A stretch of 5,501 nt of DNA from a virus (Duplodnaviria; Heunggongvirae; Uroviricota; Caudoviricetes), in IMG/VR virus record IMGVR_UViG_2778261064_000016. The stretch is one strand, 5' to 3'. The notes beneath the pieces are model-generated. The model had not been told where the DNA came from. It made no database searches and was given only the letters and a program-made list of their open reading frames with translations. The translations under genes were made by a program, and so were the position numbers. This document shows positions 1,468-5,501 of this stretch, piece by piece. Every line of letters begins with the position of its first letter. Positions within the stretch are counted from its first letter, which is position 1.

Positions 1468-1956
1468 ATGGCTGCGATAAAGGAGACAGCTGGTCTCGCT
1501 AAGGTTATTAATGACGCAAAAACGGATGCAGAAGTTAAAGCCGCAACTATTGAACTTCAGAACAAACTAATCACGCTTCAGGCGGAGTGCTTCTCTCTTG
1601 GCGATGCGATCCGTCTTCGTAACGAAGAGATAATGCTTCTCAAAGCAAAAATTGCAGAATTCGAAAACTTTCAGATTCAGACTGAAGGTTATGTTCTTAA
1701 CCAACTCGAATCGGGTGCTTTTGTATACTCGCAGGAGGAAACGGTGAATGGAGGCACTGTTACTATGCATCTTTGTCCAAAATGTTTTGGACAAAAGACA
1801 GTATCTATACTCCAGCCATTCCCGGTTAGCGAAGATGCGCCTTTTCATGAAAGTAAGTGTCTCCACTGTGAAAACAAGTTTCTGATGAACAAAAATCCGG
1901 ATTACATACCGCTGTCTTTTGATGAGATAGCGAGAACACTGGGCAGTAATCCGTAG
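1468..1956 (+). CDS. hypothetical protein, 162 aa: N-terminal coiled-coil-like helix plus C-terminal Cys4 (CxxC-24 aa-CxxC) zinc-ribbon-like domain; first gene of inverted cassette
   Basis: ATG at 1468, in frame within track ORF 1339..1956, stop at 1954-1956. No good SD before this ATG. An alternative GTG start at 1444 has a weak SD (GAGAAGAG, 8-nt spacer). Heptad-like stretch IELQNKLITLQAECFSLGDAIRLRNEEIMLLKAKIAEFENFQ, then CPKC...CLHC. No transmembrane segment. Family not recognised. Confidence 0.55.
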   Translation: MAAIKETAGLAKVINDAKTDAEVKAATIELQNKLITLQAECFSLGDAIRLRNEEIMLLKAKIAEFENFQIQTEGYVLNQLESGAFVYSQEETVNGGTVTMHLCPKCFGQKTVSILQPFPVSEDAPFHESKCLHCENKFLMNKNPDYIPLSFDEIARTLGSNP

Positions 1957-2409: not shown

Positions 2410-2562
2410 TCAGTCAGTGTTTCTGGCTAACCAGCGACGGGCACCATTTTCGGTTTTAAACGTTTTGCTTTTGGTATACGTCATCGCGGTAAACGTGCCG
2501 TCCTGGTTGGGGAATACTCCGCACACCAGAGATTCATTATTGCCAAGATTGAGCATATCCAT
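2410..2562 (-). CDS. small hypothetical protein, 50 aa
   Basis: ATG at 2562..2560 with SD GAGG 5 nt upstream; stop TGA at 2412..2410, 11 bp before the next gene start. MDMLNLGNNESLVCGVFPNQDGTFTAMTYTKSKTFKTENGARRWLARNTD. Found by hand translation. Confidence 0.4.
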   Translation of the reverse strand: MDMLNLGNNESLVCGVFPNQDGTFTAMTYTKSKTFKTENGARRWLARNTD

Positions 2563-2740
2563 GTTGACCTCATTTACCCTTAACGCCGGGTAGCGGAACT
2601 AAAAACCTGCTGCGCTGTTATACAAAGTGTTCCCGCCGTCATGTTCATACGCCTCGGGCTGGCTACTTAACCCCTGACCACTGCCTGGTAACTCGAAGTA
2701 TTGCCCGGCATTCTGTGGGGCGGGGTGGGTTGGTGAGTGC

Positions 2741-2770
2741 ATCATAAAACACACAAAACGTGTTAGTCAA
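2741..2770 (-). promoter_or_regulatory. PL-like sigma70 promoter for the leftward early operon
   Basis: On the minus strand: -35 TTGACT (2770..2765), 18-bp spacer, -10 TATGAT (2746..2741). Sits just downstream of the toxin-operon terminator and is overlapped by two operator-like palindromes. Confidence 0.4.
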
Positions 2771-2785
2771 CACAAGAAAAGTGTA
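2748..2785. promoter_or_regulatory. two adjacent 17-bp operator-like palindromes (OL-like): AACAC-N7-GTGTT and AACAC-N7-GTGTA
   Basis: 2748-2764 AACACacaaaacGTGTT is a perfect 5-7-5 palindrome. 2769-2785 AACACaagaaaaGTGTA has one outer mismatch. Centres are 21 bp apart; the A-rich spacers and half-sites match the palindromes at 3754-3770 and 3802-3818. Confidence 0.4.
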
Positions 2786-2799
2786 TGCAGGGATAAAAA

Positions 2800-2827
2800 A
2801 ACTCCCATTCAAGAGGTGATGGGAGTT
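2800..2827 (-). terminator. intrinsic terminator of the repressor-antitoxin-toxin operon
   Basis: Stem AACTCCCAT (2827..2819) / ATGGGAGTT (2808..2800) with a 10-nt loop, followed on the minus strand by TTTTTTAT (2799..2792). Begins 10 bp after the toxin stop codon. Confidence 0.45.
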
Positions 2828-2836
2828 GGTTGATTA

Positions 2837-3124
2837 TTAATCGTTACCAGGATATTGCTGACGAGCATGTATCACGCTAACAATTTCAATGCTTGAAGTA
2901 GCTACCCTGTATAGGATTATGTAGTTAGGGTGAGTCACGATTTCTCTCAATCCAGAAACCCGTTCGCTTGGCGGATATAGATACGGATGCTCAGATAGGG
3001 GTAGCACCGATGTTTCAATGCGTATTTTTAGTCTGCGCGCTGCCGGAGGGTTTTTCTTAGCAATGTAAGTTATAATCTGACTTAAATCATCGCGAGCAGA
3101 CGGTAACCATAAAACGGGCAGCAT
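2837..3124 (-). CDS. parE: ParE/RelE-superfamily toxin (type II TA toxin), 95 aa
   Basis: ATG at 3124..3122 overlaps the antitoxin stop (TAATG), with SD GGGAG 6 nt upstream inside the antitoxin gene. Sequence MLPVLWLPSARDDLSQIITYIAKKNPPAARRL...GLREIVTHPNYIILYRV...IEIVSVIHARQQYP shows the ParE/RelE hallmark pattern. The track ORF 2837..3247 is a 5' over-extension. Symbol is family-level; this may be parE2 of the O157 paaR2-paaA2-parE2 system. Confidence 0.85.
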   Translation of the reverse strand: MLPVLWLPSARDDLSQIITYIAKKNPPAARRLKIRIETSVLPLSEHPYLYPPSERVSGLREIVTHPNYIILYRVATSSIEIVSVIHARQQYPGND

Positions 3125-3315
3125 TACACGCTCCCGTTTTCCATGGCAATTTGATTGATGATTTTTTCCATTTTTGCCATTACTTCGTCGTGCGGTATTG
3201 CTGGTCGTGGATCTGCAAGGCTTGCTGCAACCTTGGCGCGCAACCATTCGTTGTAACTGTTTTCTTGCTCGATAGTTTCAAATTCTGAAACTATCGGCGA
3301 AAGAACTGTGCTCAT
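3124..3315 (-). CDS. cognate antitoxin, 63 aa (PaaA2/ParD-like by position)
   Basis: ATG at 3315..3313 with SD AGAGG 6 nt upstream; stop TAA at 3126..3124 overlapping the toxin ATG (translational coupling). Small acidic protein MSTVLSPIVSEFETIEQENSYNEWLRAKVAASLADPRPAIPHDEVMAKMEKIINQIAMENGSV. The 63-aa length matches what I recall for PaaA2, but the sequence is not verified. Confidence 0.75.
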   Translation of the reverse strand: MSTVLSPIVSEFETIEQENSYNEWLRAKVAASLADPRPAIPHDEVMAKMEKIINQIAMENGSV

Positions 3316-3343
3316 AGTATGCCTCTCTGTCGTATGGTTGTAA

Positions 3344-3742
3344 TTATGCTCGACGTCCTTTTTGGGCGGCAAGCCATCTTGCAACTGTGCGATCCATTGA
3401 TTCTTTTTTGTCTTTCATGTCTTTAAGCATTTGTTCTTGCTCCTCTTCTGGGAACGCCCCAAATGTTTGAAGCAAATCTCTCTGGCGCGGTCCTATTTTC
3501 ATTGTGTCAGGTACTACAACCTGTTCATCCTCGCTCGGAGGAAGCATGAACCAAAAAATAGGCCGAGCAGTTATTTGTGAAAGTCGATCTAAATTGTCAG
3601 GATTTGGACTAACTAAGCCAGCAGCCCATCGCTGCACTGTTTGTTGCGACACACCAACTAATTTCCCAAGCTCCGCCTGACTCCAGCCTGTTTCAGACAA
3701 GAGTTTCTTTATTCTGTATGCAGTAATCTCGAGTGTTTTCAT
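3344..3742 (-). CDS. cI-like prophage repressor, HTH (XRE-type), 132 aa, RacR/PaaR2-like; no peptidase S24 domain
   Basis: ATG at 3742..3740, stop at 3346..3344. HTH motif in GWSQAELGKLVGVSQQTVQRWAAG. No SD, but a -10-like TAGAAT lies 7 nt upstream of the ATG, suggesting a leaderless mRNA. Divergent from the cro-like gene; 28 bp upstream of the antitoxin gene on the same strand. Too short for a LexA-type autocleavage domain. Confidence 0.85.
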   Translation of the reverse strand: MKTLEITAYRIKKLLSETGWSQAELGKLVGVSQQTVQRWAAGLVSPNPDNLDRLSQITARPIFWFMLPPSEDEQVVVPDTMKIGPRQRDLLQTFGAFPEEEQEQMLKDMKDKKESMDRTVARWLAAQKGRRA

Positions 3743-3753
3743 AGTAACAATTC

Positions 3754-3770
3754 TACTCAAAAAACGAGTA
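3754..3770. promoter_or_regulatory. 17-bp operator-like palindrome TACTC-N7-GAGTA in the divergent repressor/cro intergenic region
   Basis: TACTCaaaaaacGAGTA is a perfect 5-7-5 inverted repeat with an A-rich spacer. It abuts the -10-like element of the repressor promoter (attcta at 3750-3755 on plus = TAGAAT on minus). Confidence 0.4.
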
Positions 3771-3801
3771 ATGCGCGACACACTAAAAATGGGTTTACAT
3801 A

Positions 3802-3818
3802 TACACATTTTTTGTGTA
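3802..3818. promoter_or_regulatory. 17-bp operator-like palindrome TACAC-N7-GTGTA overlapping the putative rightward (PR-like) promoter
   Basis: TACACattttttGTGTA is a perfect 5-7-5 inverted repeat. It sits between a -35-like TTTACA (3794-3799) and a -10-like TAACCT (3817-3822), upstream of the ydaS-like gene SD GGAGG (3836-3840). Confidence 0.4.
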
Positions 3819-3848
3819 ACCTCCAGCCGCATGATGGAGGTACAAATA

Positions 3849-4121
3849 ATGAATGATCATGTTAAGAAAAGGGTCGCGGGAAAATTTTCACAACGAGAAC
3901 TGGCTATGTTAATGAGCACGAAACAACAAAGCGTATCTCGTTGGTTCAACTCTAAGTTCCCTGCATCAAGGGTGCTTCACTTGTGTCAATTGATGCAGTG
4001 GGAGGTTACTCCACACGAACTCCGACCAGACATTTACCCTAACCCAACCGACGGTTTACCCGTTGGGTGTAAGGCTAACACATCAAAGGCACCGGAGTTG
4101 ATTCATGAAAATCAAGCATGA
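3849..4121 (+). CDS. ydaS: Cro-like HTH DNA-binding protein (YdaS-like), 90 aa
   Basis: ATG at 3849 with strong SD GGAGG (3836-3840, 8-nt spacer); stop TGA at 4119-4121. HTH in FSQRELAMLMSTKQQSVSRWF. Divergent from the repressor. The track ORF start at 3771 is an unsupported extension. Symbol assigned by synteny with Rac racR-ydaS-ydaT. Confidence 0.8.
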   Translation: MNDHVKKRVAGKFSQRELAMLMSTKQQSVSRWFNSKFPASRVLHLCQLMQWEVTPHELRPDIYPNPTDGLPVGCKANTSKAPELIHENQA

Positions 4122-4530
4122 GCACATCCGCATGGCGATGAATGCCTGGGCGCGTCCGGACGGTGAAAAAGTTCCGGCAGCTGAAATAACCCGGGCTTAT
4201 TTTGAGCTGGGTATGACGTTCCCGGAGCTATATGACGACAGGCATCCGGAAGCGCTGGCTCGTAATACCCAGAAAATTTTCCGCTGGCTGGATAAAGACA
4301 CCCCTGATGCGGTTAAAAAAATTCAGGCGTTGTTACCAGCTATCGAAAAAGCAATGCCGCCTCTGCTGGTGGCCAGAATGCGCAGCCACAGTTCAGCTTA
4401 TTTTCGGGAGCTGGTGGAGATGCGGGAGCGACTGGTGAGAGACGCTGATGATTTTGTCGCAGTGGCAATCGCCGGTTTCAATCAGATGAACCGTGGTGGC
4501 CCGGCAGGAAATGCTGTGGCAGTACATTGA
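4105..4530 (+). CDS. ydaT: YdaT-like protein (CII-like regulator/toxic protein of Rac-type prophages), 141 aa
   Basis: ATG at 4105 with SD GGAG (4094-4097, 7-nt spacer); overlaps the upstream stop by 17 bp (coupled). N-terminus MKIKHEHI matches my recollection of E. coli YdaT. Stop TGA at 4528-4530. Confidence 0.8.
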   Translation: MKIKHEHIRMAMNAWARPDGEKVPAAEITRAYFELGMTFPELYDDRHPEALARNTQKIFRWLDKDTPDAVKKIQALLPAIEKAMPPLLVARMRSHSSAYFRELVEMRERLVRDADDFVAVAIAGFNQMNRGGPAGNAVAVH

Positions 4531-4601: not shown

Positions 4602-5501
4602 ATGGCTAACGCCTGGCTCAGATTATGGCATGACATGCCAAATGATCCTAAGTGGCGAACAATTTCCAGGGTGTCAGGACAGCCAATCGCAACAGTGATG
4701 GCAGTGTATATCCACCTTCTGGTGAGCGCGTCACGAAATGTCACGACATGTCACGGCGTGTCACTACGTGGCCACATTGATGTCACGACGGAAGATTTAG
4801 CAAGTGCGCTTGATGTGACGGAAGAAGTAATTGATTCAATTTTACAGGCAATGCAGGGGCGGGTACTTGATGGAGATTTAATCACTGGATGGGAAAAACG
4901 CCAGGTACTGAAAGAGGACAACGGTAACGTTTCTCAAACCGCGAAATCCCCGGCAGAGCGCAAGAGAGCGCAGCGCGAGAGGGAAAAATTACGAAAACAG
5001 AATGAGGGGGGCCACGACGAGTCACGCATATGTCACGACATGTCACGACGAGTCACGACAGATAAAGATACAGATAAAGAATTAAACCCCACACATAACG
5101 CGCGCGAGAGTGCTCCGACCAGTGAGGCGAATGGTGTGCCGTTGCAGACAGCGGAACCTGATTACCAGGAAGGCCTGAGCGAACCCATCGGGAAATTTCC
5201 GATGACCGATGGCTGGCATCCGTCGCCGGATTTTCGACGACGGGCTGCGTTGTGGGGGATGGCTCTGCCAGAGCCGGAATTTACACCTGCTGAACTTGCC
5301 GCCTTTCGGGACTACTGGGCAGCGGAGGGGAAAGTTTTCTCGCAGGTTCAGTGGGAGCAGAAATTCGCCCGTCACGTAAATCACGTCAGGGCACAGGTTA
5401 AACCAGTCAGCAAGGGGGTAAACCATGCAGCAGCACCAGGTGGCACCGCATCACGGGCAGTTCAGGAAATTCGGGCAGCACGTGAGCAGTGGGAACGTGA
5501 A
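4602..5501 (+). CDS. phage replication initiation protein (O-like, YdaU/DUF1376-type N-terminus, DnaT-like C-terminal region), partial: continues beyond the right edge
   Basis: ATG at 4602 with SD AAGAGGTGA (5-nt spacer). Hand translation gives 300 codons with no stop to 5501. N-terminus MANAWLRLWHDMPNDPKWRTISRVSGQPIATVMAVYIHLLV. Iteron clusters inside the gene, as in lambda O. Follows ydaS/ydaT as in Rac. Confidence 0.8.
   Translation, partial: MANAWLRLWHDMPNDPKWRTISRVSGQPIATVMAVYIHLLVSASRNVTTCHGVSLRGHIDVTTEDLASALDVTEEVIDSILQAMQGRVLDGDLITGWEKRQVLKEDNGNVSQTAKSPAERKRAQREREKLRKQNEGGHDESRICHDMSRRVTTDKDTDKELNPTHNARESAPTSEANGVPLQTAEPDYQEGLSEPIGKFPMTDGWHPSPDFRRRAALWGMALPEPEFTPAELAAFRDYWAAEGKVFSQVQWEQKFARHVNHVRAQVKPVSKGVNHAAAPGGTASRAVQEIRAAREQWERE
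4729..4790 (+). repeat. iteron cluster 1: five copies of TGTCACGAC-like 10-bp repeats (four contiguous at exact 10-bp spacing)
   Basis: cgTCACGAAa / TGTCACGACa / TGTCACGGCg / TGTCACTACg at 4729-4768, then TGTCACGACg at 4781-4790. A DnaA-box-like TATCCAC sits at 4708-4714. Confidence 0.7.
5011..5060 (+). repeat. iteron cluster 2: five copies of (T/A)GTCACGAC at exact 10-bp spacing
   Basis: gCCACGACGa / GTCACGCATa / TGTCACGACa / TGTCACGACg / aGTCACGACa read directly. Two further degenerate copies (GTCACGtaaaTCACGtc) at 5371-5387. Confidence 0.7.
5061..5090 (+). other. AT-rich tract with short direct repeat (GATAAAGA x2) immediately after iteron cluster 2; candidate DNA-unwinding element of the origin
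   Basis: gataaagatacagataaagaattaaacccc is about 70 percent A+T, directly flanking the iterons, mirroring the lambda ori layout (iterons then AT-rich region inside the initiator gene). Confidence 0.5.

Follow-up and report, generated by a model that had tools for sequence, protein, structure and literature searches.

The immunity region of a lambdoid prophage can carry a toxin–antitoxin (TA) pair in the place of rexAB (Prolic-Kalinsek 2023, PMC9986795). A described system of this kind is paaR2-paaA2-parE2 of prophage CP-933P (Sp12) in Escherichia coli O157:H7, which is also found in phage Evi. Here, a related locus is described from a 5,501-nucleotide stretch of caudoviricete DNA (IMG/VR virus record IMGVR_UViG_2778261064_000016), referred to at its full length as the window. 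Between positions 2800 and 3848, this stretch encodes a helix-turn-helix (HTH) repressor, an antitoxin and a toxin. Earlier papers have described this type of system, the way it is regulated and the features it shares with lambda (Hallez 2010; Jurenas 2021; Prolic-Kalinsek 2023). Judged by its sequence, the present copy is an immunity allele separate from both O157:H7 copies, with another HTH domain, other operators and another Cro analogue combined with a conserved TA cassette and YdaT.

In CP-933P, PaaR2 is the CI analogue and is translated from a leaderless transcript of the promoter PRM (Jurenas 2021, PMC8630535). The same study identified YdaS and YdaT as the Cro and CII analogues and dismissed a role for them as a TA pair. 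PaaR2 represses the promoters PR and PL and competes with YdaS for operators in a 97-bp gap and at PL, past the TA genes; the immunity locus is bistable, and a YdaT-activated promoter, PRE, provides an alternative leftward transcript (PMC8630535). PaaR2 has no autocleavage motif, and mitomycin C elicits no response from it (PMC8630535). The TA pair stabilises plasmids via post-segregational killing (PMC8630535), with killing being Clp-dependent in the published homologue experiments. According to a passage in a review (PMC4803016, citing Hallez 2010), O157:H7 has two paralogous systems, with no cross-neutralisation by their antitoxins.

Gene content and relation to described systems

Very probably, the region is a paaR-paaA-parE operon of the kind already published, serves as the leftward immunity operon in a lambdoid prophage of E. 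coli, and acts as proposed for that type. On the minus strand lie a 132-aa CI-analogue repressor of the PaaR family (3344-3742), a 63-aa PaaA-family antitoxin (3124-3315) and a 95-aa ParE-family toxin (2837-3124). The antitoxin stop and toxin start share one nucleotide (TAATG) within GTGTAATGCTG, the gap between repressor and antitoxin is 28 nt, and the only terminator in this co-directional regulator-antitoxin-toxin order follows the toxin; the three genes are presumably co-transcribed as one operon. Divergently, on the plus strand, lie a YdaS-like Cro analogue (3849-4121, 90 aa; PF15943, 2.2e-10) and the CII analogue YdaT (4105-4530, 141 aa; PF06254, 1e-10; phrog_163, a CII-like activator, 9.8e-47).

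Much of this layout had been proposed from the letters of the DNA, in what is called here the sequence-only reading. The repressor, both TA genes, the TAATG overlap and a terminator at 2800-2827 were all found where that reading had placed them. Its divergent YdaS/YdaT pair is borne out by the Pfam YdaS_toxin and YdaT_toxin matches and by an exact YdaT operator, and its placement of the TA pair in the rexAB position agrees with synteny of the module with the O157:H7 prophage and phage Evi loci and with PMC9986795.

The TA proteins belong to well-defined families. As had been predicted, the 95-aa protein is of the ParE family: it matches ParE_toxin (PF05016, 2.2e-17) above the curated cut-off, and its residues 1-92 align with E. 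coli O157 ParE2 in the PDB (5cw7_B, E 3.5e-37). The only Pfam match of the antitoxin is PaaA2 (PF21217, 1.7e-22), also above the curated cut-off, so that it carries no recognisable DNA-binding domain; in the PDB it matches PaaA2 (3zbe, E 4e-23), and neither Pfam nor PDB searches gave a ribbon-helix-helix (RHH) or ParD match. Canonical parDE systems (RK2 ParD/ParE, Vibrio cholerae ParD2/ParE2) share the ParE fold and family (PF05016), an upstream antitoxin and a stop/start overlap. However, canonical ParD is an RHH DNA-binding autoregulator, whereas the present antitoxin has no RHH domain and control is left to a separate phage repressor.

Gene order, spacing and position opposite ydaS-ydaT are the same as in paaR2-paaA2-parE2. 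Relative to the CP-933P type (phage Evi, L003), the antitoxin is 69% identical, the toxin about 70-72% and YdaT 94%, and the YdaT operator OM is identical. In both loci the repressor has no S24 domain, and its gene, leaderless in CP-933P, is probably so here as well; in each, PL with its OL operators lies past the toxin. In contrast, only residues 76-132 of the repressor, its C-terminal 57 aa, align with PaaR2 (51%, E 1e-18); the HTH domain does not, and the proteins differ in length (132 versus 123 aa). The CP-933P-type YdaS gives no alignment with the YdaS-like protein, and ACAC-N7-GTGT operators stand here in place of the GTTTAGTAA-type repeats of CP-933P (PMC8630535). The match to paaR2-paaA2-parE2 put forward in the sequence-only reading thus holds for the TA pair, the repressor C-terminus and YdaT, but not for the repressor DNA-binding domain or YdaS, where no similarity is detectable. 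By its C-terminal domain and position, the repressor is a PaaR family member with a different DNA-binding module. Variation in the TA proteins is greatest at the C-terminus of the antitoxin and in the N-terminal hairpin of the toxin, and because these diverge from their CP-933P counterparts, cross-neutralisation with the CP-933P proteins would not be expected.

The second O157:H7 copy (L002, strain PV15-279) has a repressor 62%, an antitoxin 77%, a toxin 91%, a YdaS 62% and a YdaT 87% identical to those of the window. This locus probably corresponds to 'paaR1-paaA1-parE1' of CP-933M/Sp4, since it is the one copy besides paaR2-paaA2-parE2 that an O157:H7 genome contains and since it adjoins a gene of the ECs1072 family. 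DNA homology to L002 covers 2419-3511 and 3981-4528 and is lost at 3512-3980 and at OL. The 3512-3980 break spans the HTH half of the repressor, the operators and the HTH half of YdaS. To the left of the toxin, a three-way alignment is near-invariant up to about 2735 and then diverges exactly over PL/OL and the terminator. As read from these alignments, the homology breaks follow the classic lambdoid immunity substitution pattern.

Purifying selection acts on both TA genes, as measured against the L002 copy: the ratio of nonsynonymous to synonymous substitution rates (dN/dS) comes to 0.11 in the toxin gene and 0.14 in the antitoxin gene. Across the module, dN/dS ranges from 0.05 to 0.22, excluding the repressor HTH half and the comparison of the toxin with ParE2, where dS is saturated; all five open reading frames (ORFs) are intact.

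The sole domain kind found by Pfam in the repressor is HTH_3 (5.8e-11, above the curated cut-off). A PDB sequence search matched HTH domains only (P22 C2, HipB, 434), and no PaaR2 structure was among the matches. An AlphaFold (AF2) model built on 32 homologues (mean predicted local distance difference test score 83) shows a five-helix XRE-type HTH domain (residues 3-66), a disordered linker and C-terminal helices at 85-95 and 99-131. Its top fold matches include the N-terminal domains of the P22 C2 (root-mean-square deviation 1.0 Å), 434 and lambda repressors, and the short helical C-terminal domain probably serves oligomerisation. As the sequence-only reading had argued from its length, the repressor contains no S24 peptidase domain according to either the Pfam scan or the model. 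No LexA box lies in the window within three mismatches of the consensus, and the single bare CTGT-N8-ACAG in the 41-kb locus of strain RM9088, the nearest genome, is at chance level; there is thus no evidence for direct SOS control.

The repressor ATG lacks a Shine-Dalgarno (SD) sequence, while each of the other four genes has one, that of the antitoxin being GAGAGG, 7 nt 5' of its start. The putative PRM -10 element, TAGAAT (3750-3755, minus strand), stops 7 nt short of the repressor start codon; it was read from the sequence by analogy with paaR2, whose leaderless start was shown by 5' RACE (PMC8630535). By the same analogy, the repressor mRNA is probably leaderless. A longer, 162-aa repressor ORF starting from the ATG at 3832 was considered and rejected: it would span the whole operator/promoter region and is absent from homologues, which begin at the MKTLE/MTALE position, and RefSeq annotates the 399-bp form.

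The parallels with lambda cI-rexA-rexB lie in the logic of the region: a leftward repressor operon driven from PRM, a probably leaderless repressor mRNA and accessory cargo downstream, together with three OR operators (23-25 bp spacing), more operators at PL past the cargo, and genes of Cro and CII type that are transcribed divergently. Homology is, however, limited to the HTH fold. The RecA-cleavable S24 domain of the lambda repressor is absent here, the cargo is a TA pair rather than RexAB, and the CII analogue is, unlike that of lambda, a POU-type YdaT (PMC9986795).

Predicted operators and repressor specificity

Exact ACAC-N7-GTGT, the predicted binding site of the repressor, occurs three times in the window (2749, 2770 and 3803) against 0.02 expected, and none of 200 shuffles reached three. 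With two variant sites, all five operator-like sites fall in the two regulatory gaps, OR and OL, where they overlap predicted PL, PR and PRM elements. The sites are 25 and 23 bp apart at OR and 21 bp apart at OL.

At OR, the 106-bp repressor-ydaS gap holds three 17-bp operator-like palindromes. OR3 (TACTCAAAAAACGAGTA, 3754-3770) would overlap PRM and is a perfect 5+5 palindrome, with ACTC-N7-GAGT at 3755 as a symmetric two-mismatch variant. OR2 (CACACTAAAAATGGGTT, 3779-3795), a one-mismatch ACAC-N7-GTGT (3780), overlaps the putative PR -35 and abuts that of PRM, and OR1 (TACACATTTTTTGTGTA, 3802-3818), an exact match, lies between the PR -35 and -10. The predicted rightward promoter (3794-3822, plus strand) consists of a -35 TTTACA (3794-3799), a 17-nt spacer and a -10 TAACCT (3817-3822); it is too weak a match for the stringency at which the consensus scan was run, and its geometry is the same in related loci.

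At OL, both sites are exact matches: OL1 (AACACACAAAACGTGTT, 2748-2764) lies in the spacer of a PL-like leftward promoter and OL2 (AACACAAGAAAAGTGTA, 2769-2785) overlaps its -35. This promoter (2741-2770, minus strand; 10/12 in the scan) has a -35 TTGACT (2770-2765), an 18-nt spacer and a -10 TATGAT (2746-2741), and would drive the DUF1391/ydfB-like genes. Its position matches that of PL933P, just past the TA pair in CP-933P (PMC8630535). The intrinsic terminator of the operon (2800-2827, minus strand) begins nine bases after the toxin stop. A terminator scan found its 10-bp stem, and the hairpin, followed by U7, folds at -12.7 kcal/mol in the minus-strand RNA (z = -3.8); a single one of 200 shuffles was as stable.

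At the ydaS/ydaT junction, in the PRE region, the YdaT operator OM (TTGATTCATGAAAATCAA, 4098-4115) reproduces the published TTGATT-N6-AATCAA (PMC9986795). This motif is exact and occurs once in the window, against 0.01 expected.

The sequence-only reading had referred to four palindromes. The repressor-ydaS gap holds the three operator-like sites above and an unrelated inverted repeat at 3820-3840, which may be its fourth; two further operators lie at OL, downstream of the toxin. The inverted repeat, CCTCCA-N9-TGGAGG, falls within the 5' leader of ydaS, where it would base-pair the ydaS SD sequence (GGAGG) in the PR transcript. Its predicted fold (-12.4 kcal/mol, z = -2.1) lends weak support to such a hairpin.

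Operator sequences vary together with the recognition helix of the repressor. Repressor-ydaS gaps were read in nine loci, including six further loci with repressor homologues. Repressors with the helix SQQTVQRW (the window, Enterobacter asburiae and Rahnella) face ACAC/ACTC-N7-GTGT operators, whereas those with TQQTVQQW (O157 L002, Salmonella and Raoultella) face ACAG/ACAA-N7-CTGT/TTGT. The L002 operators keep the same 4-N7-4 architecture and spacing, with ACAG/ACAA half-sites in place of ACAC. Other HTH domains, namely PaaR2 and a 166-aa type (P0094), are accompanied by unrelated repeats. This covariation supports the operator assignment. It also suggests that the present allele is heteroimmune to both O157 copies. 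That the allele is a new immunity specificity, set largely by a single Gln/Arg change (Arg38) matched to one operator base, is more likely than the defence-cargo proposal discussed below.

The toxin–antitoxin pair in the rexAB slot

In the proposed mechanism, the repressor would bind the 17-bp (T/A)ACAC-N7-GTGT(A/T) sites, three at OR and two at OL, and, as in CP-933P, shut off PR and PL while autoregulating PRM. YdaS would antagonise the repressor, and YdaT would activate the alternative leftward promoter. The type II TA pair would ride on the repressor transcript in the rexAB slot, with the PaaA-type antitoxin neutralising the ParE-type toxin. By homology, this toxin would poison DNA topology and induce SOS, and a labile antitoxin paired with a stable toxin would make the immunity region addictive: cells losing the region would be killed or arrested and the prophage thereby stabilised. 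For the present allele, the repression logic, leaderless translation, bistability and addiction would all follow by analogy with the CP-933P homologue.

Several points weigh against this picture. The order in which the operators are filled and activation of PRM are extrapolated, because neither the HTH domain nor the YdaS-like protein is related in sequence to its characterised counterpart in PaaR2 or YdaS. The PR -10 (TAACCT) and the PRM -35 are weak and were not called by the consensus scan. In CP-933P, ParE2 activity was undetectable in either state of the switch, and the cellular target of ParE2-type toxins has not been established (PMC8630535).

Comparison with related prophages indicates that the slot behind the repressor holds exchangeable genes. 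In E. coli loci, paaA-parE follows the repressor; this includes one locus where the repressor shares the C-terminal 40 residues but has a longer HTH domain of a quite different kind. Full-length repressor homologues (61-77% identity) also stand opposite ydaS-ydaT without the TA pair in Salmonella, Raoultella, Enterobacter and Rahnella. The Raoultella slot holds a gene for a 133-aa protein of unknown function (L006 3530-3931), that of Salmonella one for a 112-aa unknown (L008 3574-3912), and that of Enterobacter genes for a 59-aa protein and a 277-aa DUF6414 protein (L010 3665-4640), while Rahnella has nothing close by. Since homologous repressors occur with other or no cargo in four genera, the HTH protein is taken to be the prophage repressor itself, and the TA slot to be variable like that of rexAB. 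Reassortment runs in both directions: a single TA cassette is found behind no fewer than three repressor HTH domains that are unrelated to one another, and a single type of HTH domain and operator (ACAC-N7-GTGT, Arg38) occurs with or without TA, in four genera. The C-terminal domain of the repressor adjoins the TA pair in every TA-bearing locus examined and is also present in the TA-less homologues, a distribution that suggests a recombination joint at the repressor linker.

The longer HTH type is represented by a 166-aa E. coli/Shigella repressor (L004 1680-2180, P0094; relatives P0096 and P0097), in which an unrelated, longer N-terminal HTH domain is fused to the shared C-terminal 40 aa, with paaA-parE next in the locus.

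This exchange of cargo bears on the leading alternative, in which the TA pair mainly acts as anti-phage cargo, through abortive infection or superinfection exclusion, and is a functional analogue of RexAB rather than a prophage-stabilising addiction module. A superinfecting phage would stop host transcription, the labile antitoxin would decay and ParE would be freed. This alternative is compatible with the repressor assignment, and both the exact rexAB position of the pair (PMC9986795) and the swapping of slot genes in related prophages (DUF6414, small unknowns), a pattern typical of defence or moron hot spots, speak in its favour. The Enterobacter, Salmonella and Raoultella slot genes are candidate exclusion or defence genes. 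However, a PADLOC scan of the five immunity proteins gave generic HTH matches for the repressor and none for toxin, antitoxin, YdaS or YdaT, so that no defence model matches either TA protein; the Salmonella and Raoultella cargo proteins likewise had no match. None of the publications found reports phage defence by PaaA-ParE, and addiction, as plasmid stabilisation, is the sole phenotype demonstrated for the homologue (PMC8630535). A predominantly defensive role is rather unlikely. The broader proposal that the pair is 'rex slot' abortive-infection cargo armed by the repressor transcript, and that its reassortment reflects selection on immunity specificity and phage exclusion, is tentative to the same degree.

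The state of the switch could also control the toxin directly. The sequence-only reading had suggested that loss of repressor could lead to toxin activation; put mechanistically, a flip to the YdaS-on state would turn PRM off, the antitoxin would decay, and released ParE would kill cells or feed SOS. In its favour, the TA genes lack a strong promoter of their own: the only internal candidate (3372-3343) matches the consensus at 9 of 12 positions, and promoter-like matches in the region are as frequent as in shuffled sequence, so it is not claimed as a TA promoter. Against this, the CP-933P TA pair is transcribed appreciably in both states of the switch, with SOS-positive cells at 0.88% versus 0.95% (PMC8630535), and the YdaT-activated PRE, whose OM operator is conserved here, offers another leftward transcript. 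In the homologue the suggested activation was not borne out, and state coupling is improbable.

A further possibility, given very little credence, is that the HTH protein is no master repressor but one half of a split antitoxin, its DNA-binding part having been detached to serve only the autoregulation of the TA pair. The absence of a DNA-binding domain from PaaA would fit, as would the presence of the repressor C-terminal domain beside the TA pair in all TA-bearing loci examined, even where the HTH domain differs. The full-length homologues in TA-less prophages of four genera argue against it, as do the operator copies flanking a second promoter, PL, past the TA pair and the repression of PR and PL by PaaR2 (PMC8630535). 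That the module is a decaying relic without current function is equally hard to credit: the CP-933P prophage of the type system is cryptic (PMC8630535) and the prophage in the nearest genome has an IS1 insertion and several pseudogenes, but five ORFs, operators and terminator are intact here, dN/dS is low throughout, and the allele is conserved among complete genomes. The immunity operon of the paaR-paaA-parE type thus remains the preferred interpretation.

Genomic setting and significance

The nearest genome, RM9088, is a crow E. coli isolate classed as a hybrid of Shiga toxin-producing and enterotoxigenic E. coli, and its matching lambdoid prophage adjoins ompW. A Stx1a prophage of RM9088 has been reported as inserted in ompW (PMC10562709). 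Window and prophage are 99.7-99.8% identical on either side of one exchanged 319-bp segment (2100-2418). The RM9088 prophage runs from integrase, excisionase, exonuclease, DUF1482, dicB, small genes and DUF1391 through toxin, antitoxin, repressor, ydaS and ydaT to a DnaT/O-like gene, a P-like gene and the late genes. The same allele, at 97.8-99.8% identity over 2800-3848, is present in 12 complete E. coli genomes out of 5,426. By megablast, 493 genomes match that interval, mainly over the TA genes and the 3' half of the repressor gene. Among 50,697 phage records, one, that of phage Evi (LR597642), has a ParE2-like toxin belonging to this family; Evi encodes PaaR2 (MQKKE...), PaaA2 and ParE2 themselves.

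Other features of the window and its nearest relative were also recorded. In place of window segment 2100-2418, RM9088 has a 985-bp cassette that is not related to it and whose product is a hypothetical protein of 212 aa (L001 18635-19619), a difference that amounts to a small cargo swap inside the PL operon. The minus-strand ORFs at 1-430, 510-713 and 716-898 correspond, by position relative to the RM9088 annotation, to the 5' end of a large 'exonuclease' gene, a DUF1482-like gene and a gene for a DicB-like cell-division inhibitor. An Rfam scan of the whole window gave no family at the gathering score, with no DicF or other known small RNA. Running opposite to the flanking PL-operon genes, a 162-aa ORF at 1468-1956 (plus strand) combines two CxxC pairs with an N-terminal half of coiled-coil type; it matches phrog_1244 (unknown function, 1.1e-52) and has no Pfam match.

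Direct repeats (A/G)TGTCACGAC with a 10-bp period form two clusters, 4728-4790 and 5020-5060, inside the DnaT/O-like replication gene (4602 onward). With at most one mismatch, eight such sites occur in the window against 1.1 expected, including one outside the clusters at 4672, and none of 200 shuffles reached eight. The repeats look like origin iterons within an initiator gene, as in lambda O. Two further items were noted in the RM9088 prophage (L001 27159-27721 and 32123-34050): a second, canonical ParD/ParE pair and, in the late region after three tRNA genes, an operon whose annotation is that of an AB5 toxin of the subtilase family, with two B subunits flanking an S8 peptidase.

The discovery value of the present locus is modest, given that the kind of system, its regulation and its lambda parallels are already in the literature. 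Nevertheless, it provides a third natural PaaR/YdaS immunity allele, and its clean, predicted operator change lends itself to simple tests of heteroimmunity and of repressor specificity. The exchange of cargo behind a conserved C-terminal domain supports the published idea that the TA pair was inserted into an existing immunity region. The same comparison constrains the idea that TA pairs prevent recombination of that region. Finally, the module of the nearest genome sits in a fuller, toxin-carrying prophage by ompW that is not clearly cryptic, providing a setting for the question of how an S24-less repressor belonging to this family is induced.

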